Positions 30,958 to 55,992 of a DNA stretch of 64,000 nucleotides are shown here, one piece after another. A model generated the notes under the pieces. The model saw only the letters and a program-made list of their open reading frames with translations. It was not told the DNA's origin and ran no database searches. Position 1 is the stretch's first letter. Each line of letters opens with the position of its first letter. Both the position numbers and the translations under genes were made by a program. The stretch is from an uncultured Clostridia bacterium (GTDB lineage: Bacteria > Bacillota > Clostridia > Oscillospirales > Acutalibacteraceae), in the NCBI GenBank assembly GCA_944384845.1, contig CALWUZ010000212.1, positions 567 to 64,566 of the forward strand. The letters are read 5' to 3'.

Positions 30958-32370
30958 TTAGGTGTTTACTCCGATTTGATATTTCGCCCAGCCGGATTTT
31001 GCATAATCGCCGTCCGTGAAATATACTTTTCTTGAAAGCTCAGCTGTCTTTATTCCGCACTGTGCGTCAAAAAATTTATCATGGAAGCATTTGCCGAGCT
31101 TCTCACCCCATGACTCAAGCGCAGTAGCCGTTAAATAAGGTGTTCCTGACGACAGCGTGTGCCAGGTAGTATGCATTATACCGTAAAGTCCATAATTCCT
31201 TGCAGTGGATACCGAGCTTTCAATAACCTCTCTGCCGCAATCCCAGGGACATATAAGCACATCAAAGCCGGCATTTTTAAAAACGAGCGAAGTTTCAATC
31301 GGATAAAAGTTACTCCAATACTGCCAGTCGCCTATTATAACTCGCTTATCTAAGCCATCAAGCAATTTTTTTTCGGTTTCCTCATCCGGACAAAAGGTAA
31401 CATAATTATTTTTTGAATTGAAATCCTTGTGCCGGCTAATAAGCATATCCCCCCATACAATCGGTCTTCTACCGTTTGCCGCCAAGTCCTCGGTAATTTC
31501 ATTTATATAGTCCGTAAACGGCTTAATGTCATCCTTGGTCATTTCAATATACGGCTCATCGCAGCCTATGTGGAAATATTCGGAATCGCCGCAAAGCGCT
31601 ATAAGTTCCTCACGAATGTTTTTCAGTAATTGGCGAACCTTTGGTTTTTTAATATTCCAGCGCCAGCCGTCGTCAGAAAAATACGACTGAAGCGAGGGAT
31701 TCTGGTCAAGCACGACATGCTTTCCGTGCATTACTCTTCCGGCACTGGCGTGTCCCCAGTGATTGAACATAGGAATTACTTCAAGTCCCATATCCCTTGC
31801 TTCTTTAATAACCGGAGCAACCTGTTCTTTTAAAAATCCATGCTTCCAGCTCAGATGTTCCAATGCGTCATATTTGAGCATACCCCAGAACTCCAAAATG
31901 ACATGAGAGTATTTAAGCGCCGCACATAATCTGATAAATTTATGTAATTCCCACAGCTCTGTTTCCGGAAAAACACAAAAATGAGCCATTCGATTTTCTA
32001 TAATCGGGTTTTCGCTGATTATACAGCAGGACAGATATATATCATTATTATCCGATACCATTATTCTGTCCATAAGAGCAAAAAGCCCGGTTTTTAATCC
32101 CTTTTCATCATTCGCGGATATGCAGACTCCCGTCTCGGTGACGCTTATAGAATAAAGTGATTTTTTCGCCGAAGGAATTTTTGTATTGCCTATCATAAAA
32201 AACATTTCATTTGTATTTTGAATTTGAAGTGACGAGCAGCGATAAGAAAATCCGTGCCACAATTCTATAAATATTTCCTTATTCAGACAGCTATTTGCTA
32301 ATGCAGTTATATTCCTGCCCAATAAAAAAACACCTTTGCTATCCGTATTTTTATTACAGTTAAATACCAT
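30958..32370 (-). CDS. GH20-like hydrolase, cytoplasmic
   Basis: EVIPMFNHWGHA and YFHIGCDEPY (H-x-G-x-D-E) fit a GH20 catalytic barrel. ATG at 32370 with an AAGGAG RBS is preferred over the longer track ORF. Confidence 0.55.
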   Translation of the reverse strand: MVFNCNKNTDSKGVFLLGRNITALANSCLNKEIFIELWHGFSYRCSSLQIQNTNEMFFMIGNTKIPSAKKSLYSISVTETGVCISANDEKGLKTGLFALMDRIMVSDNNDIYLSCCIISENPIIENRMAHFCVFPETELWELHKFIRLCAALKYSHVILEFWGMLKYDALEHLSWKHGFLKEQVAPVIKEARDMGLEVIPMFNHWGHASAGRVMHGKHVVLDQNPSLQSYFSDDGWRWNIKKPKVRQLLKNIREELIALCGDSEYFHIGCDEPYIEMTKDDIKPFTDYINEITEDLAANGRRPIVWGDMLISRHKDFNSKNNYVTFCPDEETEKKLLDGLDKRVIIGDWQYWSNFYPIETSLVFKNAGFDVLICPWDCGREVIESSVSTARNYGLYGIMHTTWHTLSSGTPYLTATALESWGEKLGKCFHDKFFDAQCGIKTAELSRKVYFTDGDYAKSGWAKYQIGVNT

Positions 32371-32509
32371 ATTTGGTTCACTCCTTTGCAGATATTTAAA
32401 CATATGTACATCCAATTTACAATACAATTTCCATAATGATTTTTATAATTTTCAAAACAATTCTTGACATGCTCAGGAATTAAATATATTATAATTAAAG
32501 GTGCTATAT

Positions 32510-33912: not shown

Positions 33913-36900
33913 TTATCTGAAGTTCAAGCCTGCCGCAGCAAAATCCTTCATATTATCATCTGCATCAAATATCCCGAAGCCTACATTATACTCCCACACG
34001 CACCAGCCTACTCCGGATTCATTGCATAATGATGTGAAATAATCAAGATATTCTGTAACGTCACTTTCATCAAACCCATCGTCCGGCGAACTGTTCAGCC
34101 CGCCCATATATACTCCAAATTCCGAAATCCATACGGGAATATTGCCGTGCGCGGCAGAAAAATCACTCGCATCCCTTATTCCGGCTTCTATTTCGGCGGG
34201 AGATCCGGATATTTGAAAATCTGCTCCCACCGGATATCCCATTCCCTGATGCGTAAAGCTCATTGCACCGTAGTTATGAAGCGAAACAATAAGATTTGAG
34301 GTATCCTCAGGTAAAACAATGCTGTCAGCCGCGTAGGTTCCCCCATACGGACAGGCGGTAAGCGCGATAATGCGGTCGGAATCAATCGCGCGTATTTTAG
34401 CAACCGCGGTGTTCTGCAATTCGTTAAGCTTTTCCGAAGACATCAAATCAGGACCTTCGCCTGCCGGAGTAGGCTCATTGATAAGCTCAAAGATTACAGA
34501 ATCGGGATAATTCTTATAACGCTCCGCCACCTGTTCCCAGATGCTGTAAAAAAGATCGGAATTTCCGTTTACATCCTCCATAAGCTCATTAAAGGAATGA
34601 AAATCGAGAACTACGGTTAAACCGTTATTTAAAGCCATAATAACCGCATCATCAACATAACTCATAAAGGTTTCATCAAGAATGCCGCTTTCGTCCGTAA
34701 CATACGCCAGCTTAAGCGGAAGACGGACATGGTCAAAGCCGGCAGAGGCTGCCGAGCTGTAAGTGCTTTCGGAAAGCGATGTTGAGCCCGGTAACTCTTC
34801 AATGCTTTTTTTAAGATTGTCGAAATCTCCGGAGATGTTTATTCCGCACTTTAAACTCGGAGCTTTATTATATGATTCAAATTCGATGTCACTGTAAACG
34901 GCAAATTGAATATCATCGTAAAAATATTCGGTTCCGCCTCCGGAAAGCTCATACTCGACATACGCACAAACCGCAAATTCCGTATTCTGACGTTCCGGTG
35001 CTATCTCGTCAATAATTACATTATATTCAAACGACTGATTGCTGCGGTCATATACAAATCCCTTGCTTTCATTGATAACCACATTATCCACATAGAGCGA
35101 CGCACCGGCAGATTCAATACCTTCAATCGTATAACTGTCCCACATATCGTATTTATCGATAACCTCGGCAGAGGTGACAAGCGCTCCGTAAGTCACCGCC
35201 TTATATTTTTCACCGTAAATATTGATATCACCGTTATATAAAGGAACAGTGTAATCAAATTTTACAGCATTACGCAGCGGTATGGCAGAAATTTGACTGT
35301 AAACTGTCATTAAATCATCTGAAAATTCAGCGTACACACTTACATCCGATGCGGGCATTGCAAAAGTATATGTGCTGCCGCTGTTGGTTTCACGGAAGCC
35401 GTCTCTTGCAACCGGGATTTCATTACCCGAATCATCGGTAACCTTCAGAGTACCCGGAACAAGTCTGTATCCGGCGTCCGGAGCAACGGTAAAGACCGCC
35501 GTTTCATCCGGGAAGACCATTCCGCTGTCCTGAATAATTATACCGCCGTTTGTCACGCTGCTGTCAGCGCTTACTATATTTCCTCCGTAAAGCAGCTTTA
35601 CATTTAAAATTTCAAGCGTATCGCCCGCAGAGGCTCCCTCCGGCACCCACACGTATATTTCAAGCTGCCTTATTCTGCTGTTTTCCTCCGCGCTCGGATA
35701 GCTCGGTGCAGGTTTGTACCAGTTATGTACGCCGTAATCCGAATTATTATATAAGTTGCTTCTGTAATTCAGCGCCTTTGTCACCGTCTCACCCGGCTTA
35801 ACCACCACGGAATTCGGATCTTCGTTCCAGCGCCATACATTATCCTCGCCGTTATTATCTGTATCTCCTCTGAGCATTACACCGAGGGTCGCCTGCACCG
35901 AAGAATTGTTTTCAGCAGTCAGCATAATTCCGTTAGCGTTAAGCATTTGCTCCGGAGATAGCGGAAATACCGTTTTATATCCCTGCCATCTTGCGTTTCC
36001 GGTCAACGGACCGTTGCGCGAACCGTCCAGCGAATAAGTTATTCCATCGTCTGTCACAACCGGCTGTTCATCGTCCTCATATCCGTTGTCGAGAACTGTT
36101 TCTGTGTTTTCCAGTGAAAGGGATGCCTCTCGGTCAAACTCATTATTATACTTTTCATAACGGAAATCATCGAAATAAAAGACCGAGCCTTCCGCGGCCT
36201 GCGGCAGGCGGAAATCGATTTCCGTAACGGTATTTTTTATATCGGAGATTGAATATCCGTTGCTTTCACTGTGGTACCATTGGTTATTCGGATTGTAGGT
36301 TCCGACATCATCGAACCAAATAGTATATTTTATATAATCTCCCACCGGACTGACCGTAAACAGCTTTTGAGCTATCGGAGTGCCGTCCGATTTTATCCAG
36401 CAGCGAAGAGTGGCGCTCACATTGCCCGGATTATATACATAAAAGCTTACACCGTCATACCTGCGTATTTCAGAATTGAGCTGAAGATTGAAATTGCCGT
36501 CATACATGCTGCTGGGACGGGTATGTGAAATCATATATCTGCCCTGCGCGGCAAAAACCCCTTCTGTAGCTTCGGAATCTATCAGCACGGCGCTGTGTTT
36601 CACATTTGTAAGTGTTCCGTTTTCAAAATCGGCTATAACCGCGCTTTTTTCAAGCAATTCGTCATAATCGGCATCCGCTTTTTCAAGCTCGCCGGCAGTT
36701 CCCTTTACTACTATGCCGATCGACTCAATCAGAAGATATGCGCTTGTTATATCGGCCGCATACGGCACGGTCACCGCCAGAACAATGTCGGAAATACCGG
36801 ATTTGTCCTCCTCTGTCCACTTAACGCTGTTATAGTTTCCGTAATAATCCAAAAACTGCCACTCGGACACCTTTCCCATATCCGCAATGTTTTTGGTTAT

Positions 36901-37428
36901 AGTGTCCTTTCCGAGATTCTTCACACGAATAGTTTTGTCGCTGTCCTTTGCATAGTTCGTTCCGTCGGTAAAGCTCAAAAGATAATTCAGATTATTATTG
37001 CCCCAGCTTCCGTCAGACGCCACAGAGCAATTATCCCATTCCATCACCACCGAATCAATATACCGACGGTACGGCGCGGGAACAGACAATGTAAAAGCAT
37101 AGTTCTGAACCTTACTTATTGTTCTGTCATCGTTAGAGGCTGTCTGCTCGTTAAACCAAAGCTTTAGTCCCTTGCTGCCGTCTTCAAGCCCTACTACCTC
37201 GCGCTTTCCGCCGTAATCATCTGATGAATGCCATTTCATATTGACCGGCAAATCGTTGGGACTGTCCTTTGAAAGAATATAACCGTCTTCAAAATCGCTG
37301 AAATCAAGAAGAGGTATTGTTTTTGTGACCTCTTCGTCCGATGCGGCTGCCGGCGCCGGCATAAACGCCGACGCTGCCAACAGAAAAGTGCTTAGAAAAA
37401 CTGCAAGTGATTTTATACATTTTTTCAT
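33913..37428 (-). CDS. Secreted 1171-aa multi-module protein with C-terminal GH5 catalytic domain
   Basis: Signal peptide ...PAPAAAS. N-terminal modules are shared with ORF 40829-43270 (e.g. ...VFYFDDFRYE). The C-terminal ~325 aa (33916-34890) has GH5 motifs FDHVRLP, FELINEP (acid/base) and WISEFG (nucleophile). Confidence 0.8.
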   Translation of the reverse strand: MKKCIKSLAVFLSTFLLAASAFMPAPAAASDEEVTKTIPLLDFSDFEDGYILSKDSPNDLPVNMKWHSSDDYGGKREVVGLEDGSKGLKLWFNEQTASNDDRTISKVQNYAFTLSVPAPYRRYIDSVVMEWDNCSVASDGSWGNNNLNYLLSFTDGTNYAKDSDKTIRVKNLGKDTITKNIADMGKVSEWQFLDYYGNYNSVKWTEEDKSGISDIVLAVTVPYAADITSAYLLIESIGIVVKGTAGELEKADADYDELLEKSAVIADFENGTLTNVKHSAVLIDSEATEGVFAAQGRYMISHTRPSSMYDGNFNLQLNSEIRRYDGVSFYVYNPGNVSATLRCWIKSDGTPIAQKLFTVSPVGDYIKYTIWFDDVGTYNPNNQWYHSESNGYSISDIKNTVTEIDFRLPQAAEGSVFYFDDFRYEKYNNEFDREASLSLENTETVLDNGYEDDEQPVVTDDGITYSLDGSRNGPLTGNARWQGYKTVFPLSPEQMLNANGIMLTAENNSSVQATLGVMLRGDTDNNGEDNVWRWNEDPNSVVVKPGETVTKALNYRSNLYNNSDYGVHNWYKPAPSYPSAEENSRIRQLEIYVWVPEGASAGDTLEILNVKLLYGGNIVSADSSVTNGGIIIQDSGMVFPDETAVFTVAPDAGYRLVPGTLKVTDDSGNEIPVARDGFRETNSGSTYTFAMPASDVSVYAEFSDDLMTVYSQISAIPLRNAVKFDYTVPLYNGDINIYGEKYKAVTYGALVTSAEVIDKYDMWDSYTIEGIESAGASLYVDNVVINESKGFVYDRSNQSFEYNVIIDEIAPERQNTEFAVCAYVEYELSGGGTEYFYDDIQFAVYSDIEFESYNKAPSLKCGINISGDFDNLKKSIEELPGSTSLSESTYSSAASAGFDHVRLPLKLAYVTDESGILDETFMSYVDDAVIMALNNGLTVVLDFHSFNELMEDVNGNSDLFYSIWEQVAERYKNYPDSVIFELINEPTPAGEGPDLMSSEKLNELQNTAVAKIRAIDSDRIIALTACPYGGTYAADSIVLPEDTSNLIVSLHNYGAMSFTHQGMGYPVGADFQISGSPAEIEAGIRDASDFSAAHGNIPVWISEFGVYMGGLNSSPDDGFDESDVTEYLDYFTSLCNESGVGWCVWEYNVGFGIFDADDNMKDFAAAGLNFR

Positions 37429-38390: not shown

Positions 38391-39611
38391 TTAATGAAGA
38401 TTATTTATAATAAAATCTTTCCACTGTCCGGTGTTCATATCATACGCTCCGTATCCCGCATTGAACTCCCAATAGGAATAAGAAAGATTCTTCTCTTTGC
38501 AAGCCGACGAAAAAAAGCTGTCATACTCCGCCACATCGTTTTGATCTGCTATCCCGAGATATACGCCCCATTCACTAATCCATACGTTTCTGCCGGTGCG
38601 TTCCTCATAAATACGGCACTGTTCAAGCGCGGATTCGACCGATTTTTTAATTTCATCGCTCATATGAACCTTTTCGCTGTAAGGGTTCCCTGCCAGCCAG
38701 TTGGCGCCCTGATGCGTAAAATTCATGGTATTGTAATTATGTATTGATATTATCAGATTTTCGTCATTAGGAGGAACCTGCGTATTCCAGAGATTCCATG
38801 TGCCGTTGTTCTCGTTTGTCGCAAGCGCGATTGTACGCGTAGGATTTGTACGTCGTATACGCCTTACAGCCTCAAGCTGAAGCTCATTTAGCTGCCCGTT
38901 GCTTATCGGTTTGTTCGGCTCATTGATAAGCTCGAACATAAGCTCTTCGGGATAGCTCTGATACCGCTCCGCAAGCTGTTCCCAGATTTTATAAAAGCAC
39001 TCCTTATTACCTTCAAAATCAGAAGCCAGCCTTCCTGCCCAGCCGTGAAAATCGATTACCGCTATAAGCCCTGCGTCAAGCGCGTTATTTACCGAAAGAT
39101 CGACTGCGCGCAGAAACTCGGTATCGATATAATATTCGGGCGCTTCTCCGATATGGTGAGCAAAATTCACCGGAATGCGGACATGGTCAAAGCCGGCGTC
39201 GGCGATTGTCTCATAGTAGCTAATGTCAAATATCCAAGAGCTGTAATTTACTTCTCCCGCAGCTTCAAGCGGACCTGAAATATTTATACCCCGCCGCATT
39301 CTGTCGGATATATGCTCTTTCGCTTCCGCGGTATTATCCTCGTCAGGCTCACTGCCTGTCTCAGCGTCGCTGACATTCTGAGGCCTCTGAGAACTTGGAG
39401 CGTTATTTGCGGACGATATATTATCTTCCTTTTCTGAAACAGTTTCGGATTGAATGCTGCTGCCGGTATTTTCGGAAACCCCGGCACTGTCGGATATGGT
39501 TACGCCGGGGTCCGGGGTCTCCTTTTTTGACTCAGTCTGCGTTTTGCCGCCGCAGGCGGAAAAAACCGTCAGTTGGATAAGAGCAAGCACAAGGGCAATC
39601 ATTTTTTTCAT
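38391..39611 (-). CDS. GH5-family glycoside hydrolase, lipoprotein
   Basis: Lipobox LTVFSAC, S/E-rich linker, FDHVRIPV, FELINEP, FTHQGANW, WISEWG. Confidence 0.8.
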   Translation of the reverse strand: MKKMIALVLALIQLTVFSACGGKTQTESKKETPDPGVTISDSAGVSENTGSSIQSETVSEKEDNISSANNAPSSQRPQNVSDAETGSEPDEDNTAEAKEHISDRMRRGINISGPLEAAGEVNYSSWIFDISYYETIADAGFDHVRIPVNFAHHIGEAPEYYIDTEFLRAVDLSVNNALDAGLIAVIDFHGWAGRLASDFEGNKECFYKIWEQLAERYQSYPEELMFELINEPNKPISNGQLNELQLEAVRRIRRTNPTRTIALATNENNGTWNLWNTQVPPNDENLIISIHNYNTMNFTHQGANWLAGNPYSEKVHMSDEIKKSVESALEQCRIYEERTGRNVWISEWGVYLGIADQNDVAEYDSFFSSACKEKNLSYSYWEFNAGYGAYDMNTGQWKDFIINNLH

Positions 39612-40828
39612 TTTGTTCCCCTCCTCCTTTTACTGCGCCTTACAAGTATGACCGCAGTCACGGCTCCGCCAGCTGCCAGCACTGATCCGGTGGCTATCAG
39701 AACTATCTGCCAAGCCTGAAGTCCGGAAGTGGATTTTTTCTTTCTGCGCACAATTTCCTCTATTATCTGCCGCTTAATTACTCTCTGCGGCTCGCCCGAA
39801 TCGCCGTTTTCCTGCTCTGCGCCGTTCGTCTGCTGAGTGTAAATATTATCAGTATTTACGACAAAGGAATTGCCGCCGCTATTTTCTATTGCTTCTTCGG
39901 GTTCCTCTGCGCCTCCCTTTACAACAGCAAAAGTTCCTGTCATAAATGTATTCAGTGAAATATAACCGTCCTCAACAACGTAACGCTCCTTTATAAAAGA
40001 ACCGTCGAAATAAACGCGGTATAAAAATATTTCGCTGAAATCCAGCGCCGGGTCAACCTTGAAGCTCAGCCATATTTTTCCGTTAGGCTCTATGACGTCT
40101 CCCGCAGCTGAATAAAAGGTGATTGTTTTAAAAGCCAGCGGCTGTGCTTCCGCGCCGAAATCAATACCCCAGCTCTTTACGGCTGACAGCGGATCCTCTG
40201 ACTCTATTACGGTAACTGTACTCATATCAAGAGCATCGTTATAGGCGTCCACAGCCACATCCTTATCCTCGTAATGATAGCCCGAATAGATTACGGCGCT
40301 GCCTACTTCTTTACTCCAAACCGACAGTCCGCTCAGCATTATTTCTCCGACCGACTGACCGTCGTGTGATACAGGCAGCACGGATATCGAACGTATATCC
40401 GAATAATCGAAAACAGCGTCAGGATTATTTTCCAAAAACCCGCTGTATATATCGGCAAAAGACAGCTGATATACACCATAAGAGCCATCCTCAGGCGGCT
40501 CGGTTTCTACAGATACCGGAAGACTGTTTCCTGTGCTGTCGGTAAGCGTCAGTTCGACCAAAAGCGGTTTATCCGACTTCAGATAAAAGCCTAAAGTCGC
40601 AGTATCAATAAACGGAGTTAAATCGCTGCAGTAATTCGTAAAGACATTTTCAAAAACCGCAGGAGATACTTCAGCCGAAGCGTCTGTCTCAAGCCTCCAG
40701 GCAGTTGTAAACAGCTTATAATTGGGATCGTTTCTGTTTATCTTGGTCTCCTGCGCCGTAATATAACCGCCGCCGGGCTTAAAGCGGTTGGCTTTTACTA
40801 TCTGGCGTGTCTGCGTTTCATAATTTTG
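39608..40828 (-). CDS. C-terminal, membrane-anchored continuation of the upstream surface-protein frame (separated from it only by TAG 40829-40831)
   Basis: The track ORF begins at TTG 40561, but the 89 codons upstream (40562-40828) are open, in frame with ORF 40829-43270, lack any ATG/GTG/TTG and read like protein (…GFYLKSDKPLLVELTLTDSTGNSLPV). The C-terminus has a TM span (IVLIATGSVLAAGGAVTAVILV) plus RRSKRRRGTK. Confidence 0.55.
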   Translation of the reverse strand, partial: QNYETQTRQIVKANRFKPGGGYITAQETKINRNDPNYKLFTTAWRLETDASAEVSPAVFENVFTNYCSDLTPFIDTATLGFYLKSDKPLLVELTLTDSTGNSLPVSVETEPPEDGSYGVYQLSFADIYSGFLENNPDAVFDYSDIRSISVLPVSHDGQSVGEIMLSGLSVWSKEVGSAVIYSGYHYEDKDVAVDAYNDALDMSTVTVIESEDPLSAVKSWGIDFGAEAQPLAFKTITFYSAAGDVIEPNGKIWLSFKVDPALDFSEIFLYRVYFDGSFIKERYVVEDGYISLNTFMTGTFAVVKGGAEEPEEAIENSGGNSFVVNTDNIYTQQTNGAEQENGDSGEPQRVIKRQIIEEIVRRKKKSTSGLQAWQIVLIATGSVLAAGGAVTAVILVRRSKRRRGTK

Positions 40829-40837
40829 CTAATTTTG
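40820..40837 (-). repeat. Imperfect 9-bp tandem duplication containing the in-frame TAG
   Basis: The minus strand reads CAAAATTAG CAAAATTAT (Q-N-stop Q-N-Y). The two 9-mers differ only at the last base (G vs T). Confidence 0.9.
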
Positions 40838-43270
40838 CGGAACATCGCTGTAATAGACGTCTATATAATTTATCTGAACATTCCATCCCTCATTGCCCTC
40901 ACAGGTCGGAGCGGTTATGTATATCATAATCGTGTTAATCATACCGAGCTGCTCTTCGTCCCATCTTGCCGCCGTACCGCTCCATCCCAGAATTGCGGAC
41001 TGAGATGTCAAAAGCCTCATCTCTTTAAACTGCTGCCTGACCTCAACAGTTTGACCGACGTCCGGAAATTTAGTCGTGTCTTCATCTTTCTTTCCGTAAT
41101 AGCCTCCGCCGCCGATCGCAATGCTGTGATATATGTTTTCAGCATTACTCCAGCTATTGTCACAGGAAACTGCGTTATTGGTCAATCCGACCCGCAGCTC
41201 GACAGCGCCGGTCATCACGCTTTCCGGCAGGGAAAGCTTAAGCAAAAAATACTTGCGCCCGCTTATCCGATTTGAGGTAGAAAAATCGGTGGCGGCATCA
41301 AAGTTTATCTGATATGCCTTTGAATTATCCGCGTTTTGAACAACGCCCGAGCTGCCTTTGTAAGTTCCTTCGATTTCAACGTTTTCAGGCAGCTGACCGC
41401 CCGGCTCGCAATCTTCAAAGTCGAGCATTCTAACAAGCATTTTATCTCTGTCGTCCGTTACAATAAGCTCAAACGAGTCAAATAAAACGCCGCCGCTGCC
41501 TTTATATACATTTGGTATTCTGATACGCAGATAAGCAATGTCGCTGATTTCATCCTCCGTCATAACGCTGCCCATGGTTGTGCCGCCCCAGAATTCATCT
41601 CCGGTTTTAAGACCGATGTCATCAAAGAAAATGCGTACTCTCGTATAACCTTCCTTTCCGGGGTCTATTGTTGTAATATACTGATATTTTACGCTTCCGG
41701 AGGACTGCACCATAAAGCAGCGCAGCTGCGCGCCTGCAGCAGCGTCAAGATTTTTAGCATAAAACTGTATTCCTGCGCTTTCCGATACGCGTTCGTCCAA
41801 ATTGATTCGAATAGACGCGCTATAATCGTTGCCGCTGTCTTTGCCTCCCTTAAACAGAAGCGCGTTAGGACTGCTCACTGAGTCAGAAGAAATTTCAAAG
41901 CTGCCGGCGCCGGCGTCTGTCTTAAAAGTATTAAGGGATAAAAGCCGATCAAGGTCATCATATTCATCAAAAGAAACAAGGTAGGGATCGACCGCATCTA
42001 TTGCCTCAAGAACGCTGCGGTCGCCCTTTAAGGTGACGCTTATATCCCCTATGCTCACACTCCAGCCCTCGGTGCCGTCACAAGTCGGTATAGTAATGTA
42101 TATAAGTAATTTCGTTGCCTCTGCCATATGACGGTAGGTCCATTTATCAGCCGAGGAGCTGCTTTTTCCCAAAAACGCGGATCTTGCAACTCTTAACATT
42201 CCGACGGTATTTTCCGAAATAACGCCCTCGGCGTCATACTCAAGCTCATTGGCGCCTGTAACTGTTTTTCCGTATTTTGTACCGTCGGTAATGCCGATTA
42301 GGTAATACATTCTTTCCCTTACGTTTGCAGGCGGGCTTTTATCGCTCTTTATCTCAACGTTTACGGCGTCAAGATATTTAGCATATTTTTTCGGAATATC
42401 TACAGAAAGCGCAATATATTTAGGTCTGCCGGATACGGTGGAGGCGGTTGAGCTGCCAACCGCTTTGTCAAACGCCACGTTATACATTTTTGAGCCGTCA
42501 GAGCTTTCTGTAATTGAGACTGTCCCGTCATATACTTTTGCGTCGTCCAACACCGTAAAGCCGTCAGGCGCCGTAAATTCGGTACCTGTTTGACATTCAT
42601 CAAAGGTCACCAGCGTTTTTTCAAGCGTTGTAATATCTTCCGCCTCTTCCTCCGTTATGTAACGAAAATCATCAAAATAAACGCCGGCGTGTTCACTGCC
42701 GATAGACGGAATACGTATCATAAGCCTATCAAGCGTTAAAATTTCATCATAGGGAATAGCTGCTCCCTCAGATGAGCTTCCGTTAAAGTAATCTCCGGTA
42801 CGCAGCCCTATATTACTGAAATCAATGGTTACGGTGTGCCAGCTGCCGTCAGCCGCGGCAGATACGATATACTGATAATTCCCGTTCGCCGAATCTAAAA
42901 AGCATCTGATGGAAGCGGACTTCTCCGCGTCACGGTTGAGTACCTTAAACGTAATGCCGTAAGCCTCTGAGATTCCGCTGTCAAATTTTACCGAGATATA
43001 GGTATCATAATCCATCTGAACCGTACTCTTTGGCAAATAGCAGAGTGAATTTTTTCCGTCTGAAACATACCGGGCATCGGTATTAACCGAAATATTTCCG
43101 GAATATCCTATAACGTCCTGAGCTGACAGTTCATTCGCCGTATCGGCCTCTTCAAATGATGTAATAACCTTGTAACCGGCGGCAGCCGTCCTTCCCGCAA
43201 GCGGAAAAAACGGTCCGGCGGCTATTGCCGCGCACAACACAAAAAGAAGATATTTTTTAAATTTTTTCAT
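40829..43270 (-). CDS. Secreted 813-aa multi-module surface protein, function unknown (N-terminal part of the interrupted 1220-codon frame)
   Basis: Signal peptide MKKFKKYLLFVLCAAIAAGPFFPLAG. Two module types alternate, each present twice (type A ends ...VYFDDFRYI / ...VLFDSFELI; type B ends ...IYITIPTCDGTEGWSV / ...IYITAPTCEGNEGWNV). Confidence 0.75.
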   Translation of the reverse strand: MKKFKKYLLFVLCAAIAAGPFFPLAGRTAAAGYKVITSFEEADTANELSAQDVIGYSGNISVNTDARYVSDGKNSLCYLPKSTVQMDYDTYISVKFDSGISEAYGITFKVLNRDAEKSASIRCFLDSANGNYQYIVSAAADGSWHTVTIDFSNIGLRTGDYFNGSSSEGAAIPYDEILTLDRLMIRIPSIGSEHAGVYFDDFRYITEEEAEDITTLEKTLVTFDECQTGTEFTAPDGFTVLDDAKVYDGTVSITESSDGSKMYNVAFDKAVGSSTASTVSGRPKYIALSVDIPKKYAKYLDAVNVEIKSDKSPPANVRERMYYLIGITDGTKYGKTVTGANELEYDAEGVISENTVGMLRVARSAFLGKSSSSADKWTYRHMAEATKLLIYITIPTCDGTEGWSVSIGDISVTLKGDRSVLEAIDAVDPYLVSFDEYDDLDRLLSLNTFKTDAGAGSFEISSDSVSSPNALLFKGGKDSGNDYSASIRINLDERVSESAGIQFYAKNLDAAAGAQLRCFMVQSSGSVKYQYITTIDPGKEGYTRVRIFFDDIGLKTGDEFWGGTTMGSVMTEDEISDIAYLRIRIPNVYKGSGGVLFDSFELIVTDDRDKMLVRMLDFEDCEPGGQLPENVEIEGTYKGSSGVVQNADNSKAYQINFDAATDFSTSNRISGRKYFLLKLSLPESVMTGAVELRVGLTNNAVSCDNSWSNAENIYHSIAIGGGGYYGKKDEDTTKFPDVGQTVEVRQQFKEMRLLTSQSAILGWSGTAARWDEEQLGMINTIMIYITAPTCEGNEGWNVQINYIDVYYSDVPQN

Positions 43271-46693: not shown

Positions 46694-49198
46694 TCACCCC
46701 TTTACAACAAGATAATCTCCTGCTGCTATCGTTATTTCTTCAATAATAGCCGGATTTTCTCCGAAATTAACAAAAACCTTAGCGCCGTTTTCAAAAACAG
46801 TTTCGCTTACTTCTCTTTCAATCCATCGAAAACCGCTTATCCGCTGGTCCGCAACACACGCAAAATCGTCACAGTATTGTTTTACGCTGTCGGCAATGGT
46901 ATTCTCCCACACATTGAATCCGGTGGAATAGAAGCTGTCATAGTCGCTTTTTATAACCTTTTCCGAATTTTCGGCGGTCAGTATAAAATAAAGTCCAGCA
47001 CCTGTCTGTGCAGAATTTAAAACTGCCCTTTGAATATCTCCCGACAGATTTACCGGTTTGCCTGAATAATTCACATAGCCTTTAAGCACCATCATCAGGA
47101 AAGGAACGGAATAATCAGTACAGTCATAGCCGTTTGAATCAAGAGGCAAATTCACGGCGCTCTTTATATACGGAAGAACATAAGCGTTTGCGCCGTTAGT
47201 CATAAGATCAGCTTTTCCCGAAAGCTTTTTTACTATATCGATAATTTCATTTTTCGCCTCGCACGCATCCACCGGTGAGTTCTCATTATAATCGGCATTC
47301 AGATCCGAACCGATATTCCGCAGTGAAAGTGAGCTCAGCTGATTCGACTCCGCATATTCTAAATAAGCATTTGCTTCTTTCCTCAAAGCGCCGGAATTAT
47401 TGACAATGCGTGTCACCTGAAATTGTTTTTGTACAAAAGACGCAGGATCAAAAGTAAATACCGTACCTACCGCCTTATTTATCATTCTTATTGCTGAAGA
47501 ATTGCCTGCAGACGCCGTGTACTGTATATCGGCATCGGGATAAAACGCAATATTGCTATCTTTAAAGCTTTCGGTTAATTCGTTGAAACCCTTGCTTCCT
47601 CCAAGCTTGCCTTCAGGTCTTAGTCCGGTAATCGAGCTGTGCGACAATCCTCCGCCAAACCATCCGCTCAGCCGTACATTTATATTGCTTATGCCTTTCT
47701 CCGTAATACATTTTGAAAGGTTATAAACCTGTTCAAAATCAGTCATTGCTATTGATTCGGTATACTGAACACCGAGCTTTTGTCCCTGCTTGCCTATCAT
47801 GCCGATAAATTCTATATTAAGCGGAACGGCTTCAGTTTTTTCTTTATCCTCAAAAATACGCTGCCGATAGAGCTCTGCCATCGCGTTATAATCCGAGTTT
47901 CCTTCCTGAAGAAAAGAATACCTTACAGAAAGGTCTCCGGAATAACGCCGCTTCTGCACCACAGTAGAAGCTTCTTTCCTTCCCGACGCAAGAACAGAGG
48001 TATATGTTTCTCTGAAATTAAAGTTAACGCCCGCATAAGGAACATCGGAGAAATCGCCCGGATAAGCTATTACCTCTGCAATACTGTCGCCTCCGGTTAT
48101 TTCCGCGAACATCGCCGCCCCGGAACGGTGCACCCCGTATACCGGAAGAGAGGCGTTCATAAAATTTGAGGTTTTCTCTCCGTTTGCAAGAGAATATCCG
48201 GTTCCGTATACCCGCACCTGATATTGATGACCGTTGCTCTTATTGTTATAAAAGTTCATTACCGAACCGCTTCCGTCCGGAAGAAGAAAATAACCGCTTT
48301 CTTCAGAAGCCGGCGACCCGAAATATTTCATAAGTGTCAGGTCAATGAGCGGAAAATCGGAATACATTTCAATTTTATCGTTCGGGATACTGACGATAAG
48401 GTCACTGCCGTCGAGAATGTATTCGACCGTAATATTAAATCCGGGTTCCGTAACCGTCGAATCATCGCCGTTAAAGCTTGATTTGTCTTGCTCATACATT
48501 TCCGGAGTATATCCGGCTAAGGTTAGTATTTCAGAAAATTCACTTCTGACATTATAGGATGTAAGCACCGAGTCATTTATTACATACATCGCCTTTTCTT
48601 TCAAAATCGGATACCGTTTGGTATAACCGCTTTCATCATCAGACGAATTTTCCTTTTTAGGATCATAAAAATAATAATAGTTCTGAAATTTCATCAAATC
48701 AAATTCATCGTCAAGATTCGAGCAAAGCTCTTCATAGCGTTCAGCCGAAATCACTTCAGGAATCAATATTTGCTCCGTAAAATTTCCTATGCTGTAATGA
48801 ACACTTAAAATGCTGTCTTCGCTTTCAACTCTGTACTGACCGTTCGCAACAGAATTTTGGAATGAATCGTATTTGCCTATCGTACCTGTAGACTCAAGAT
48901 AAGACAGTTCTATAACCGCTCTTGATGATTCATTTTTGCTCTCGCCGTTTGAAGAATTCCAAACGGAGCCGTCCTTTTTATTGACAACACGTATTTCTGT
49001 CGTGTCGGGATTCATATATAAATACAAATCATCATTTTCAAGATAAAGTTCGTAATCTTCCGATCCTATATCATTCCCGGCAGTGTTCTGACCGCATATG
49101 CTTGCCTGATTGATATTTTCTGATATTTCAGCGCCGCAGCCTGATAAAAAAACCGCCGCGCAAACAACAGAAGCCGTAATACAAACAGCCTTTTTCAT
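46694..49198 (-). CDS. Exported ~834-aa lipoprotein of unknown function (DUF5696-like); cassette copy B
   Basis: ATG at 49198 with a GGAGGG RBS gives MKKAVCITASVVCAAVFLSGC (lipobox). The longer track ORF would overlap the upstream gene. Paralog of 3676-6210. Confidence 0.6.
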   Translation of the reverse strand: MKKAVCITASVVCAAVFLSGCGAEISENINQASICGQNTAGNDIGSEDYELYLENDDLYLYMNPDTTEIRVVNKKDGSVWNSSNGESKNESSRAVIELSYLESTGTIGKYDSFQNSVANGQYRVESEDSILSVHYSIGNFTEQILIPEVISAERYEELCSNLDDEFDLMKFQNYYYFYDPKKENSSDDESGYTKRYPILKEKAMYVINDSVLTSYNVRSEFSEILTLAGYTPEMYEQDKSSFNGDDSTVTEPGFNITVEYILDGSDLIVSIPNDKIEMYSDFPLIDLTLMKYFGSPASEESGYFLLPDGSGSVMNFYNNKSNGHQYQVRVYGTGYSLANGEKTSNFMNASLPVYGVHRSGAAMFAEITGGDSIAEVIAYPGDFSDVPYAGVNFNFRETYTSVLASGRKEASTVVQKRRYSGDLSVRYSFLQEGNSDYNAMAELYRQRIFEDKEKTEAVPLNIEFIGMIGKQGQKLGVQYTESIAMTDFEQVYNLSKCITEKGISNINVRLSGWFGGGLSHSSITGLRPEGKLGGSKGFNELTESFKDSNIAFYPDADIQYTASAGNSSAIRMINKAVGTVFTFDPASFVQKQFQVTRIVNNSGALRKEANAYLEYAESNQLSSLSLRNIGSDLNADYNENSPVDACEAKNEIIDIVKKLSGKADLMTNGANAYVLPYIKSAVNLPLDSNGYDCTDYSVPFLMMVLKGYVNYSGKPVNLSGDIQRAVLNSAQTGAGLYFILTAENSEKVIKSDYDSFYSTGFNVWENTIADSVKQYCDDFACVADQRISGFRWIEREVSETVFENGAKVFVNFGENPAIIEEITIAAGDYLVVKG

Positions 49199-49209
49199 TT
49201 TTGCCCTCC

Positions 49210-51273
49210 TTATACGCGCAAGGTCACTTCGTTTACAAGGTCTTTTATAAAGGCAACAAGCTGTTGACACAGCGCAAATGCCAGCATACCGATAAAAACT
49301 ATCAAAAGAATGACGACCGCAATTACAATAATAACCAAAAAGGTTTTGCTAAGGGTATAATTATGCGTCTGCATAAGTCCTAAAATTATCAGCGCCGCGC
49401 TCCATATAAGCGCAAAAGCCGCCAGAATAAAATAAAAATCCCCTTCATCTATAAGCAGAACATTGCTTAAAAGCACGGCTATTATGTTTATGACAACATA
49501 CGGCCGTAAAGCATAGCAGGTAGCCACAAATATATCCGCAAATTTACCCTCACCGTTCATCAGAGAAGTAACAGACCACTGTGCGATGCACCATATCATT
49601 ACAGCCGCCGCCACAAAGACAATATTGCCGAGCATATTATAACTGTCAATATCGGTATAGTTGAATATAAATCCGGTGAAGAGACTTTTTGATACAAACA
49701 CTGCCGCGGCTGCCGCAAACCAAAAAGCAGCCATTTTCACCGAACCGCGCTTTTCACGCTTTAAATCCCAGAATCCGTCCAAAGGATGAAAGCATACATA
49801 AGATGAAAAATTGATTTTGCGCAGCAGAGAATTTTTGTCTGCCGCAGCAAGTCTTTTACGGTAAAGTCTTAAAAGCACCGCTGTGCCGGCACACAAAATC
49901 ACAGCGCCCGACAAAATAACAACCACATTGCTCTCAATCCATTCGCGCCTGACATATGAATACGCATTTGAATATTCCTCACGCGCCCCTGCCCGTTTAT
50001 AATAATTCATAGCAAGGCTCATATCCCGGTTTTTGTAAGCCGCGTCGCCCAGTCCGCACATTGCAAGAGTACAGTTCACGTTGCGCTCAATAACTTCATT
50101 CCAAAGCTCTGACTCCCGCTCAAAATCTATATCGGCTTTAGCCTCGGCTATTTCACTGAAAAGTCTGCCGTAATCACTGAGCGTAAAAACGCACACGGCA
50201 TTCTTACCGGTATCGCATATGTAAAACCTTCCGTCACTGTATGCCATCGCAGCGGCAACAGACATGCTTCCGCCGTATGTTCCGGGTCCCGAAAATGCGT
50301 AAAGCATCTCACTTTCATTATTGTAAACAAATACACGTGAGCGCTTCCGATCCAGTATGGCATAATTTCCGCCTTCCATTTCGCACAGATCCACTATTGC
50401 GGATGCACCGGTATATGTAATTCCGCCGCTTGTATTATCGCCGAAAAATTCGTTTTCATCATTAAGCACATCTGTTCCGTTGGCATTTAGCTTCCGCACC
50501 GCCTTTATATCCTTAGAGGTAGACTCGTTCGTGACATAAATAAAGCCTTCCCCGTCAATACAGAGATTTGAATATTCGGTAGGAACAACCGACTGAGTGC
50601 GCTCCTGCTGTTCCTTTGTTGAGAATTTGCGCCATATCTGCTCTGCAATAGAAAGATTTACCTTAGGCGCACCCACAGATTTTAAATATACGTTATTTTC
50701 GTCGAACTGCATCAGTCCCATATTATAGCCATCGGAAATCACAAAAATTCGTCCGTATGAATCTGCCGCAAGCTTTACAGGCTTGAAAGTAAAATCTTCG
50801 GGCAGCGACTCATCCTCCGGCGCAGTTATTTCCAGCAGAAATTCTCCTTCAAGAGATAGCTTTACAATCCTTGAGTTGCCTGTATCCGCAATGTACAGTG
50901 CGTCATTTGCGACACATATACCTGACGGTTCCAAAAAGGTTTCAAGCTTTCCCGCGCGCTCAAATGAATCTATTGCTTCGGCGGACCTGAACTCAGGATC
51001 TGTCACTACAATACGATTGTTTTTTGTATCGGCTATATAAATTCTGTCTCCGCTGATAAAAATATCGCTCGGCGAAGAAAAATTACCGATTGCAAATTCA
51101 CTTCCGTAAAAAGTTCCGGAAGGAAGCGCACCCTCAGGAGACGGCGCCGTTTCACCCTCGGCATTGTAACTGTAGCTGTAAAAAACAGCCGCATCAGCCG
51201 AAATGCCGAATAAAGACAACAGCAGAAGCATCAAAGCTGCCGAACGTCTGATCTTTTTTAGAAAACCAAGCAT
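49210..51273 (-). CDS. Signal peptide + NHL-repeat propeller + TM + C-terminal Yip1-type domain; cassette copy B
   Basis: NHL repeats (FSSPSDIFISGDRIYIADTKNNRIVVTD; FLEPSGICVANDALYIADTGNSRIVKLS). TM VVVILSGAVILCAGTAVLL. Then HPLDGFWDLKREKRG and five hydrophobic spans. The C-terminus ...QQLVAFIKDLVNEVTLRV parallels copy A. Confidence 0.75.
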   Translation of the reverse strand: MLGFLKKIRRSAALMLLLLSLFGISADAAVFYSYSYNAEGETAPSPEGALPSGTFYGSEFAIGNFSSPSDIFISGDRIYIADTKNNRIVVTDPEFRSAEAIDSFERAGKLETFLEPSGICVANDALYIADTGNSRIVKLSLEGEFLLEITAPEDESLPEDFTFKPVKLAADSYGRIFVISDGYNMGLMQFDENNVYLKSVGAPKVNLSIAEQIWRKFSTKEQQERTQSVVPTEYSNLCIDGEGFIYVTNESTSKDIKAVRKLNANGTDVLNDENEFFGDNTSGGITYTGASAIVDLCEMEGGNYAILDRKRSRVFVYNNESEMLYAFSGPGTYGGSMSVAAAMAYSDGRFYICDTGKNAVCVFTLSDYGRLFSEIAEAKADIDFERESELWNEVIERNVNCTLAMCGLGDAAYKNRDMSLAMNYYKRAGAREEYSNAYSYVRREWIESNVVVILSGAVILCAGTAVLLRLYRKRLAAADKNSLLRKINFSSYVCFHPLDGFWDLKREKRGSVKMAAFWFAAAAAVFVSKSLFTGFIFNYTDIDSYNMLGNIVFVAAAVMIWCIAQWSVTSLMNGEGKFADIFVATCYALRPYVVINIIAVLLSNVLLIDEGDFYFILAAFALIWSAALIILGLMQTHNYTLSKTFLVIIVIAVVILLIVFIGMLAFALCQQLVAFIKDLVNEVTLRV

Positions 51274-53199: not shown

Positions 53200-55992
53200 T
53201 TATTCTCTTGTTTCAAGCCCGAATTCCAGGCGCTTTTTGGTAAGCTCGCTGTTGATTTCATATGTATATTCATACATAGCGTCAGTCGGGGACATTCCGT
53301 GGTAGACTACGTTTCTGAAAGCGTTATCCAAATTTCTTGAAAGATAATATCCTCCCGGTACCGGCTCTACTGCCGAGAGCTGGCGCTTCTGCTCAATAAT
53401 CACGTCTTTCTGGTCAGAGGTCCAGTTACTGTTTTCAAAAGCTTCCTTATTTGCGGAATTATAGCGCGAGGACTTGCCGAGAATACTTTCTATTTCATCC
53501 GCAAAAGAAATCTGGGCTTCAGCTCCCGTCCACCATTTCAAAAATTCCCATGCCTCAGCAGGATATTTCGTATCTGCAAGTATCATTGCGGCGCCTACTG
53601 CTGCAAGTGACGTTCTGTCAACCGTACCGTCTTCCCTTTCCATACCGGGTACGGGCGCCATACTCCAAAGCCCGTTAATTTCCGGAGCCGCAACCTGTAT
53701 GTTATTAAACATACCATAGTTAGCTATTCCTATAGGCATTTCACCGCTCCGGAAACGGTTAAGAAAATCAAACGAAATCGGAAAACCGTAGTTTACAAAT
53801 AGATTTGTAAATTTTGTAAATACGGAAATAGCCTTAACGGTGTCGAGAAGGCTGTATTTGCCTCCCTCGGCATATATTTCACCGCCCGACTGTTTTAACA
53901 TCATCAGATATGTATTGGAATCCGAAGGAACGCCTATCTGCATATTATTGTTTGCGAGCACTGTGGAAATTTCTATAAGCTCATCCCACGTTTGCGGCAC
54001 TTTTATTCCTAATTCTTCAAAAATATCGGTGCGGTAAAACATCATATTAAAGCTTACCGTTTCAGGTAATCCGTACAAATTCCCGAGATACCGCATAGTA
54101 ATAAGCGAAGCTTCGTCAAATCTTGCAGCAACCTCCTCCGCATCGTCAAATTCGGAAAGAGGATATGCCGCTCCGCGCATTGCAAAATTAAATACATCCG
54201 GGCTTGATTGTACAACAAGATCCGGTCCTATTCCCGCAACAGTTGCCGGAAGCAAGGAGTTAGTGACATTTTTAACAGAAACTGATATACCGCTTTGCGG
54301 CGTGAAGGACTTCGCCGCAAGGTCTCTGACAATCTGAGCCTGCTCCCTGCCGGCGCTTACCCATACCGTAAGAGTTTTTTTCTCACCGGCTGTCTTCGAC
54401 CCGATAAGCTCATAATCCGTAACATAAGACGCAAGGTACTCCTTTACGGAAAACAGAAGCTGCTTGAAAAAACCCGTTCCCGCCTTTGGAAGCTTCTCTT
54501 TGTCATTCCCGAAAGTAAAGCTGTCAATTTCAAGGGGCTGCTCTCCCGCGTCTGAAATCCAGGTGCTTAAGGAGCCTATATTCGTTTTAAAATAAGAAAA
54601 CTCTTTCGGTATTTCGTCCGGATTAGAATACATATTGTTAAGCTGTCTTATAAAACTGCGTATAAGAGCCGCTCCGGAATTACCCCTTCCGCAGTATTCC
54701 TCAATATAATCTGCGCAGACCTCAAGCCGCTCGGCATAGGTTTTCAATGCTGCTATCTGCTCCGGATGCAACACATCAAGCCTGTAATCACGAAACAAGT
54801 CCGGCGATGAGCCGAGTACGGTCAAAAACTCCCGATAAATGAGATTAAAGCCGTCAATACAATCCAAAAGCACTCGCAGCACTCTGTCCATTTTTCCGTA
54901 AGTATTCTGAAGCTTGATCTGATTCCTGCCCTCTGTAAAATAGAAGAGGAAATCAGTCTCACCGCCTAAGGTTGCCGCCTGCCATGAGCTGTCATAGCCG
55001 AATGAAAGCTCTGCCGCTTCTTTAAAAGGTATGTTGTTGTTAATATACAGCACTCTTGCCGACGACTGTCCGGGAGCCGTGTTCTGACGAAAACGCAGGC
55101 TTATCCTGTAAAGCCCCGATTTCTTTATATCCACCTCCCAGACAAAATACTGACCTGCACTGCTCCAGCGGCTGCCTCCGACAGTATTAAGCCTTATTTT
55201 GCCCGCCTTGGAGGGACTTGTCGCTGCAGAGGTACGATCCGCAACGGGGAAAAGAGTTGTCGAGGATTTCAATTCATAATCTTCCGCTTCGAGAACCAAG
55301 GTTTCAGCACCTTCTGAAATCCCTTCGCTTTTATAAAGCTCAAGCTGTTCGGAATAACTCCGCACATTCCCCGCCGGCTGTAAAATTATACTTTCAACTT
55401 CAGCCGTTCCGCCCAGCGCTGTCAGCGTCAGTGTATTTACTCCTTTATTCAAATTCACCGAAAGCGGTTCGCTGTAGCTGTAAGTATAATCATATGCATA
55501 ATTTGTTGCGGGCTTTGTGCTTACCGCATGCTCCGGACGTATTTCATTGCCGTATATATCAAGTTCCGGCTTACTCAGGTCATAATACTCACATTCAAGA
55601 ACAAACGAAGACAGCTCAATATACTGTGTTTCACCGTTTACAAGCAGTCCGAACTCGGCCTGCTCACGATTGCCTGAGGTGTTCACATAAGTGAACTTAA
55701 GATAATATCTGCCGTCCTGAGGCGATAAAACCTCCCAGTCGGTGCGAGGCAAGCCGTCGCTTCCCTTGTATTGAGAAAGATTTACCGCGTTCAATTCCGG
55801 ACCTTCGGCAGGCGGATATGCTTTATGGTCCAGAAAATAAGCGTAACTGTCCGGAGAGGCACTGACCCGCTCTATTTCATAAAGTTCTTCAGATATATTC
55901 TGAGCAGTATATGAATCGGCAGCGGCGGTCTGCATAATTACCGCCGACGCAATAATACAAAAACTCATAAAAAAAGATATGAACTTACACAT
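53200..55992 (-). CDS. Giant (930 aa) secreted solute-binding protein with two N-terminal beta-sandwich (CBM-like) domains; cassette copy B
   Basis: GGGAGG RBS and signal peptide ...IMQTAAAD. It is colinear with 10123-12930 (e.g. LEAEDYELKSS...RWSSAGQYFVWEVDIKKSGLYRISLRF; the C-terminal SBP body ends ...ELTKKRLEFGLETRE vs ...ELTKKRREFGLETDS). Confidence 0.75.
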   Translation of the reverse strand: MCKFISFFMSFCIIASAVIMQTAAADSYTAQNISEELYEIERVSASPDSYAYFLDHKAYPPAEGPELNAVNLSQYKGSDGLPRTDWEVLSPQDGRYYLKFTYVNTSGNREQAEFGLLVNGETQYIELSSFVLECEYYDLSKPELDIYGNEIRPEHAVSTKPATNYAYDYTYSYSEPLSVNLNKGVNTLTLTALGGTAEVESIILQPAGNVRSYSEQLELYKSEGISEGAETLVLEAEDYELKSSTTLFPVADRTSAATSPSKAGKIRLNTVGGSRWSSAGQYFVWEVDIKKSGLYRISLRFRQNTAPGQSSARVLYINNNIPFKEAAELSFGYDSSWQAATLGGETDFLFYFTEGRNQIKLQNTYGKMDRVLRVLLDCIDGFNLIYREFLTVLGSSPDLFRDYRLDVLHPEQIAALKTYAERLEVCADYIEEYCGRGNSGAALIRSFIRQLNNMYSNPDEIPKEFSYFKTNIGSLSTWISDAGEQPLEIDSFTFGNDKEKLPKAGTGFFKQLLFSVKEYLASYVTDYELIGSKTAGEKKTLTVWVSAGREQAQIVRDLAAKSFTPQSGISVSVKNVTNSLLPATVAGIGPDLVVQSSPDVFNFAMRGAAYPLSEFDDAEEVAARFDEASLITMRYLGNLYGLPETVSFNMMFYRTDIFEELGIKVPQTWDELIEISTVLANNNMQIGVPSDSNTYLMMLKQSGGEIYAEGGKYSLLDTVKAISVFTKFTNLFVNYGFPISFDFLNRFRSGEMPIGIANYGMFNNIQVAAPEINGLWSMAPVPGMEREDGTVDRTSLAAVGAAMILADTKYPAEAWEFLKWWTGAEAQISFADEIESILGKSSRYNSANKEAFENSNWTSDQKDVIIEQKRQLSAVEPVPGGYYLSRNLDNAFRNVVYHGMSPTDAMYEYTYEINSELTKKRLEFGLETRE

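Follow-up and report, generated by a model that had tools for sequence, protein, structure and literature searches.

When a reading frame stops at a single in-frame TAG and then runs on, open, for several hundred codons, does the stop mark the border between two genes or a break within one? And if it is a break, is it an error, a signal, or an allele? These questions are raised by a minus-strand locus in a 64,000-nucleotide stretch of DNA (the window) from an uncultured gut Clostridia bacterium of the Acutalibacteraceae (assembly GCA_944384845.1, contig CALWUZ010000212.1), in which two adjacent open reading frames (ORFs), of 813 and 317 aa, have been called. The analysis presented here shows one gene rather than two, namely that of a signal-peptide-bearing, C-terminally anchored surface protein broken by an in-frame TAG in a 9-bp tandem duplication. 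The break is very probably a recent, lineage-restricted nonsense allele, an ordinary loss of the anchor by a 9-bp duplication whose junction spells a stop codon, rather than an error or a recoding signal.

One gene broken at a duplication junction

Translation of the minus strand from 43270 to 39608 gives a frame of 1221 codons with a sole internal stop, the TAG at 40829-40831, and a terminal TGA. As an earlier note on this DNA had described, the ORF at 40829-43270 encodes 813 aa, carries a signal peptide, and ends at this TAG. A Shine-Dalgarno-like GGGAG sits 7 nt 5' of its ATG. The note had also stated that the 89 codons after the TAG contain no ATG, GTG, or TTG, and this is correct; the first such codon in frame is a TTG at 40561, 89 codons on. 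No Shine-Dalgarno sequence precedes this TTG, where the sequence reads GGATAAACCGCTTTTG. The frame remains open for 406 codons beyond the TAG and is conserved at the codon level, and coordinate mapping onto a structure model shows that the annotated 317-aa ORF starts in the middle of a domain (A3, below). The downstream part has neither a start nor a ribosome-binding site of its own and is an incomplete unit, as is characteristic of a split gene.

Related proteins span the site without interruption. A protein search with the joined protein as the query returned ten proteins (P0001-P0010). P0001 (1217 aa, 96% identity, 100% query coverage) is three residues shorter than the joined frame, and eight homologs (P0002-P0009; 1224-1272 aa, 44-48% identity, 93-100% query coverage) cross the stop site as single ORFs. 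The tenth match, P0010, is 1016 aa long with 71% query coverage. The 90%-identity cluster has 24 members. It holds at least 13 distinct intact 1217-aa alleles (P0001 and P0013-P0024), found on about 37 contigs and aligning to the joined frame over their full length at 94-98% identity, together with the window's own pieces, the 813-aa piece on three contigs and the 317-aa piece on four to five. The intact conspecific alleles lack exactly the 9 bp in question, and each close ortholog is a single uninterrupted ORF. The only homologs found by a scan of GTDB representative genomes, in metagenome-assembled genomes of Acutalibacteraceae and Ruminococcaceae, were 47-49% identical. The motif QN[YL]ET occurs at the site in every sequence read or aligned, with Q, N, E, and T invariant, and conspecific orthologs read ...PQNYETQ... 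there. The comparison of orthologs at the stop codon that the earlier note had proposed finds this TAG in none of the orthologs or homologs, and one copy of GCAAAATTA in the intact alleles. The arrangement that the note had named as contrary to its reading, two separate genes with a genuine start for the second, is not seen; conspecifics have single 1217-aa ORFs, and nine of the ten proteins returned by the search cross the site as single ORFs.

The distribution of the C-terminal part was examined separately. This 406-aa module (39611-40828; proteins P0025-P0043) has 20 matches among 1.84 billion representative proteins, and the strong matches are to the last ~400 residues of proteins of 656-2132 aa. 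Two short proteins, P0030 (327 aa) and P0036 (262 aa), are exceptions; their matches cover part of the module only, and both resemble fragments. On these matches, the module appears never to occur as a normal stand-alone gene.

The lesion itself is an exact tandem doubling of GCAAAATTA (40838-40821), which Tandem Repeats Finder reports at 40821-40838 with a period of 9, 2.0 copies, and a 100% match. The intact locus L001 reads CCGCAAAATTATGAAACG, whereas the window and four further contigs (L002, L003, L004, and L005) read CCGCAAAATTAGCAAAATTATGAAACG. Comparison with the nearest intact loci, L006-L009, over up to 23.6 kb (the span for L006) reveals no indel other than these 9 bp. An insertion of 9 bp preserves the frame, but because the junction reads TA from the end of copy 1 followed by G from the start of copy 2, translation ends after residue 813. 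The earlier note had correctly placed the TAG inside a 9-bp tandem duplication. However, it had set the register at 40837-40820, with units CAAAATTAG and CAAAATTAT that differ by one mismatch, and had described a three-codon duplication in which TAT and TAG differ by one base. That register and the TAT-to-TAG change that it would require are not borne out. The repeat of GCAAAATTA, one base out of that register, is perfect, and a single duplication creates the stop at its junction, so that no added point mutation is needed. The TAT-to-TAG step was therefore rejected in favor of one event.

Two perfect 9-bp two-copy repeats are found in the window, compared with 0.29 ± 0.53 in shuffled sequences; by itself, such a repeat is weakly unusual by chance. 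What proves the insertion is that orthologs lack exactly these 9 bp. The second repeat, at 53804-53821 (minus strand, ATTTACAAA twice), lies in a 930-aa solute-binding-protein gene (53200-55992, minus strand) whose ORF is open.

An inherited allele and its competing explanations

The identical insertion is present in four further contigs, L002 (ENA ERZ24773469), L003 (ENA ERZ28615105), L004 (ENA ERZ24773460), and L005 (Logan ERR4096548). Over 2.5-12.4 kb, their identity to the window is 99.92-99.98%, compared with 96.2-99.65% for intact loci. The duplication contigs differ mutually by few single-nucleotide polymorphisms (SNPs) and form at least four haplotypes; within the lineage, the gene differs between contigs at two or three sites only. 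Two copies of the unit are found in 5/5 contigs of this near-clonal lineage and one copy in all intact alleles (about 37 contigs). The assembled sequences show both the interruption of the frame and the inheritance of the allele by a near-clonal lineage. These data indicate that the duplication is real and belongs to a minority lineage that has diversified slightly since it arose.

Divergence around the stop bears on the age of the allele. Downstream of the TAG, the window differs from the nearest intact allele, P0016 (locus L006), by 17 synonymous and 9 nonsynonymous codons. Such a pattern is what divergence under purifying selection gives in an allele that was still functional and was disrupted only afterward; decay is not visible. 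The same 17:9 comparison gives no sign of relaxed selection downstream of the stop, the duplication alleles themselves differing at too few sites to be informative. The break is recent relative to allele divergence, yet old enough for several slightly diverged haplotypes to exist. Upstream, the window protein equals P0016 exactly for codons 1-746, after which 10 nonsynonymous and 4 synonymous differences fall in codons 747-790 (window 40901-41032, minus strand). Two versions of this block segregate among conspecific alleles. Because other alleles carry one version or the other, the block is a recombination mosaic, possibly corresponding to a variable surface patch of domain B2.

Several other explanations must be weighed against a recent nonsense allele. 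An assembly or sequencing error, one of the options that the earlier note had listed, would mean that GCAAAATTA occurs once in the actual genome and that the gene is uninterrupted there. The contigs are indeed metagenome assemblies, some with only ~4x coverage according to the record names (L002 and L004). However, the insertion recurs in five contigs that were assembled separately and come from at least three ENA/Logan accessions, the four besides the window carrying slightly different haplotypes, and it is found in none of the ~37 contigs of other strains. Recurrence in separate assemblies whose linked SNPs differ is incompatible with a one-time assembly mistake, and short-read errors do not typically take the form of a clean, perfect 9-bp duplication outside homopolymers. 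We regard this explanation as effectively refuted and assign it almost no probability. Readthrough, another of the listed options, would in its programmed form (pyrrolysine, a suppressor tRNA, or a context-dependent mechanism) allow the full-length anchored protein still to be made. The 406 open codons after the TAG, with their codon-level conservation, are what such recoding would leave, and the stop is followed by C, which in Escherichia coli makes for comparatively weak termination. However, the youth of the mutation explains the open downstream frame, and the absence of the TAG from every ortholog and homolog means that there is no conserved recoding site. TAG also ends six other long ORFs in the window, with the next gene close behind each, and no tRNA gene lies within the window. 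The 36 long-ORF stops in the window comprise 20 TAA, 9 TGA, and 7 TAG, so TAG is not avoided as a terminator, and its reassignment was rejected on this usage (7/36). Programmed recoding is thus very unlikely, and the note's suggestion of low-level readthrough finds no support in these comparisons; trace near-cognate readthrough may occur but would not be a designed feature.

The note had further suggested a population polymorphism acting as an anchored/secreted switch. The polymorphism is real, as a minority allele of a clonal lineage, but no evidence of switching was found. In such a reversible contingency switch, slipped-strand mispairing would alternate the protein between 1217 aa (anchored) and 813 aa (released), and, if true, the locus would exemplify in-frame, junction-stop phase variation of a tethered/released glycan-capture protein with multiple carbohydrate-binding modules (CBMs) in a gut commensal. 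The perfection of the repeat is favorable to this idea, as loss of one copy would restore the wild type exactly; both states also occur within one species-level cluster, and the downstream part shows no decay. On the other hand, copy numbers of 1 and 2 only are observed, with no three-copy form, and the two-copy state is limited to one near-clonal lineage (99.92-99.98% identity), where it is uniform across all five contigs. That all members of the lineage have two copies and all other strains one argues against rapid switching. A scan of JGI metagenome contigs for the flanks separated by spacers of 0-27 bases (one to four copies) gave 0 matches of any form and so added no population data. The repeats of known phase-variable loci are long arrays of short units or have out-of-frame units, whereas this locus has only two copies of an in-frame 9-bp unit, and a two-copy 9-mer is expected to slip rarely. 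We therefore consider a switch improbable. The final alternative concerns only how the same allele originated. Replication slippage or misalignment is the default explanation, and a 9-bp target-site-duplication footprint, left by a transposable element that was later cleanly excised, is another. The unit boundaries are unambiguous and lack flanking microhomology (C precedes the unit, whose last base is A, and T follows it, its first base being G), as would be expected of a footprint, and 9 bp is a common target-duplication length for insertion sequence (IS) elements. However, no element or contig break is found at the site in any contig of the cluster. Bacterial IS excision normally restores the target or leaves remnants of the element, and small tandem duplications arise without mobile elements. 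An excision footprint has a small probability in our view, and the functional conclusion is independent of the duplication's origin.

A recent nonsense allele inherited in one lineage thus remains the preferred explanation, and the note's first option, a recent nonsense mutation that releases an unanchored 813-aa protein, is supported, with the release itself predicted. Some points weigh against it. Some of the five duplication contigs may share a biological sample (e.g., ERZ28615105 and ERR4096548), and because assemblies are consensus sequences, a minority of revertant cells is possible in these populations. At 40337-40339, an in-frame ATG preceded at 6 nt by GGAG could in principle yield a 243-aa product without a signal peptide; we regard this fragment as fortuitous. 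We infer both the secretion of the 813-aa product and the absence of the C-terminal part, and the suggested glycan binding rests on fold-level similarity, with 9-17% identity to the matched structures.

Protein architecture and operon setting

The features of the locus are collected in the table. The N-terminus resembles a Sec signal peptide (MKKFKKYLLFVLCAAIAAGPFFPLAGRTAAA followed by G). An AlphaFold model of residues 32-813, with a mean predicted local distance difference test score (pLDDT) of 79.5, contains four beta-sandwich domains, and its last strand ends 6 residues before the stop. A second model covers P0001 residues 605-1217, with a mean pLDDT of 61.6 and values of 65-87 in the domain blocks. 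It again contains domain B2, followed by A3, the further beta domain, the stalk, and the transmembrane helix, and it places the duplication site in a low-pLDDT linker between domains B2 and A3 (P0001 segment residues 205-215). The first half of A3 falls within the 89 start-less codons, and its second half within the annotated 317-aa ORF. The transmembrane anchor and basic tail that the earlier note had read at the end of the ORF at 39608-40561 are confirmed as a hydrophobic helix followed by RRSKRRRGTK. An LPXTG motif before the hydrophobic segment is absent, the C-terminus reading ...RRKKKSTSGLQAWQIVLIATGSVLAAGGAVTAVILVRRSKRRRGTK, and the protein therefore falls outside the LPXTG sortase-anchored class. 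The C-terminal ~400 residues constitute a rare, unnamed anchoring module that has no Pfam or NCBIfam model.

Table. Coordinates of the interrupted gene, its duplication, and its predicted domains (window positions)
Feature	Position	Strand	Basis or remark
Whole interrupted gene	39608..43270	-	Translation; 1220 sense codons and the internal TAG, corresponding to the 1217-aa intact form with 9 bases inserted
Upstream ORF, 813 aa plus TAG	40829..43270	-	Signal peptide and four jelly-roll beta-sandwich domains
Premature TAG at the copy 1/copy 2 junction	40829..40831	-	TA from copy 1, G from copy 2
Copy 1 of GCAAAATTA	40830..40838	-	Tandem Repeats Finder; single copy in intact orthologs
Copy 2 of GCAAAATTA	40821..40829	-	Tandem Repeats Finder; single copy in intact orthologs
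Jelly-roll domain A1 (residues 32-206)	43177-42653	-	AlphaFold model
Jelly-roll domain B1 (residues 213-417)	42634-42020	-	AlphaFold model
Jelly-roll domain A2 (residues 430-603)	41983-41462	-	AlphaFold model
Jelly-roll domain B2 (residues 612-807)	41437-40850	-	AlphaFold model
Fifth jelly-roll domain, A3	40316..40804	-	P0001 model, segment residues 216-378, blocks with pLDDT 65-87
Further C-terminal beta-sandwich domain	39917..40279	-	P0001 model, segment residues 391-511
Acidic/polar stalk, ~60 residues	39725-39910	-	pLDDT below 30, disordered
C-terminal transmembrane anchor helix, 27 residues (codons 1184-1210)	39641..39721	-	Sequence
Basic tail RRSKRRRGTK	39611-39640	-	Sequence
ATGA overlap of the large-frame stop and the next GH5 gene start	39608..39611	-	GH5 gene at 38391-39611

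Scanned against Pfam and NCBIfam, the two halves and the intact ortholog gave no family assignment, the sole match being to YbbR below threshold; membership in a CBM family is accordingly not indicated by sequence at threshold. At the level of fold, Foldseek searches of the models against the PDB returned CBM11 (6r31/6r3m, template-modeling (TM) scores 0.58-0.59) and CBM30 (2c24, 1wmx) as matches to single domains, along with tandem CBM22 and CBM51, the Bacteroides surface glycan-binding protein (SGBP) SGBP-B (7kwb), and proteins with several jelly-rolls, among them reelin repeats and the C-terminal regions of Cry protoxins. The CBM-fold matches (CBM11, CBM30, CBM22, and CBM51) have TM scores of 0.5-0.59 per domain, consistent with a beta-jelly-roll. 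The domains are therefore best described as CBM-like, with glycan binding a fold-level prediction. A self-BLAST for internal repeats gave nothing at E ≤ 0.01, and the repeated domain plan is visible in the structure models only.

The gene lies in a co-directional cluster that encodes two ABC sugar-transporter permease sets, two large solute-binding-type lipoproteins, a DUF5696 protein, three glycoside hydrolase family 5 (GH5) enzymes, a GH20 enzyme, and an AraC-type regulator. For two of the GH5 enzymes, the nearest sequences are those of Thermotoga maritima Cel5A (3amc) and Fervidobacterium FnCel5A (3nco), which fits a beta-glucan or (gluco)mannan target. The other genes of the cluster have approximately the same lengths as in intact loci, small differences reflecting start-codon choice, so only the interrupted gene is broken. 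The ORFs at 46694-49270 and 30958-32427 (both minus strand) measure 858 and 489 aa, compared with 834 and 470 aa in the orthologous loci, and probably differ by start-codon choice. Residues 72-447 of an 1171-aa GH5 enzyme (33913-37428, minus strand) align to residues 247-600 of the interrupted protein (24% identity, E = 1e-19). By this alignment, the N-terminal domain pair of the enzyme is homologous to the B1-A2 region, and the operon therefore has paralogous CBM-like modules on an enzyme and on a noncatalytic surface protein. The ATGA overlap with the next GH5 gene would imply translational coupling in intact strains; this gene also has its own strong Shine-Dalgarno sequence, AAAGGAGGAGGGG. 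A promoter and terminator scan around the stop site gave results at chance level.

Our analysis allows a sequence of events to be proposed. The intact gene encodes a ~1217-aa surface protein that begins with a Sec signal peptide, continues through domains A1-B1-A2-B2-A3 and a beta domain to a flexible stalk, and ends in a transmembrane anchor, in a GH5/ABC-transporter glycan-utilization operon of an Oscillospirales bacterium (Acutalibacteraceae/Ruminococcaceae-like). In the lineage sampled by the window, one mutational event duplicated GCAAAATTA in the B2-A3 linker. The predicted product is an exported 813-aa protein, ~782 aa when mature, with four complete domains. The last 404 residues (A3, the beta domain, the stalk, and the anchor) would not be made, and the loss of the tether would release a soluble four-domain protein from the cell. 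Coupling to the next GH5 gene would be lost over 1.2 kb of untranslated mRNA. The downstream GH5 genes would nevertheless keep their own ribosome-binding sites, and the strong Shine-Dalgarno sequence of the first of them speaks against severe polarity.

The lesion is now located with single-base precision, and the annotation should combine the 813-aa and 317-aa calls into one gene marked as disrupted. The locus offers a clean natural case in which an in-frame tandem duplication is inactivating solely through the stop codon at its junction, and a natural unanchored variant of an uncharacterized multi-jelly-roll surface-protein family in Oscillospirales GH5 glycan-utilization loci. Strains with and without the duplication could reveal the contribution of tethering to glycan capture. 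The allele has no bearing on questions of the genetic code or of recoding.

Relation to known systems

The closest analogue is the set of premature stop codons (PMSCs) in Listeria monocytogenes inlA. These alleles are lineage-specific, remove the C-terminal anchor, and coexist with intact alleles in the species, and the shortened InlA, a signal-peptide-bearing surface protein, is released rather than displayed (PMC5131979). The window allele similarly has its nonsense codon 5' of the anchor, with both kinds of allele within the species, and release is predicted for its product. However, InlA is an LPXTG/sortase-anchored, characterized invasin, whereas the window protein has a plain transmembrane helix and an uncharacterized CBM-like array encoded in a glycan-utilization operon. 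The inlA PMSCs are also mostly point mutations or 1-bp indels, in contrast to a stop at the junction of an in-frame 9-bp duplication.

In its mutational character, the allele resembles the CTGG hotspot class of lacI, in which spontaneous short tandem duplications cause loss of function. In both, a short head-to-tail duplication arises in one event, and precise reversion is possible by loss of a copy. Classical short duplications inactivate by frameshift, whereas the unit here is a multiple of three and inactivates only via the junction stop.

The protein itself differs from named CBMs in having no Pfam or NCBIfam family membership and only 9-17% identity to its fold matches. It differs from SGBPs in its Gram-positive-type host and in its C-terminal transmembrane anchor, where SGBPs have a lipoprotein anchor, and its binding is a prediction from fold. 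Its intact form nevertheless resembles SGBPs and multi-CBM proteins (Bacteroides SGBP-B, 7kwb; Clostridium thermocellum CBM11, 6r31, and CBM30, 2c24) as an exported, cell-attached jelly-roll array and, as in polysaccharide-utilization loci, this array is encoded beside glycoside hydrolases and a sugar ABC transporter.

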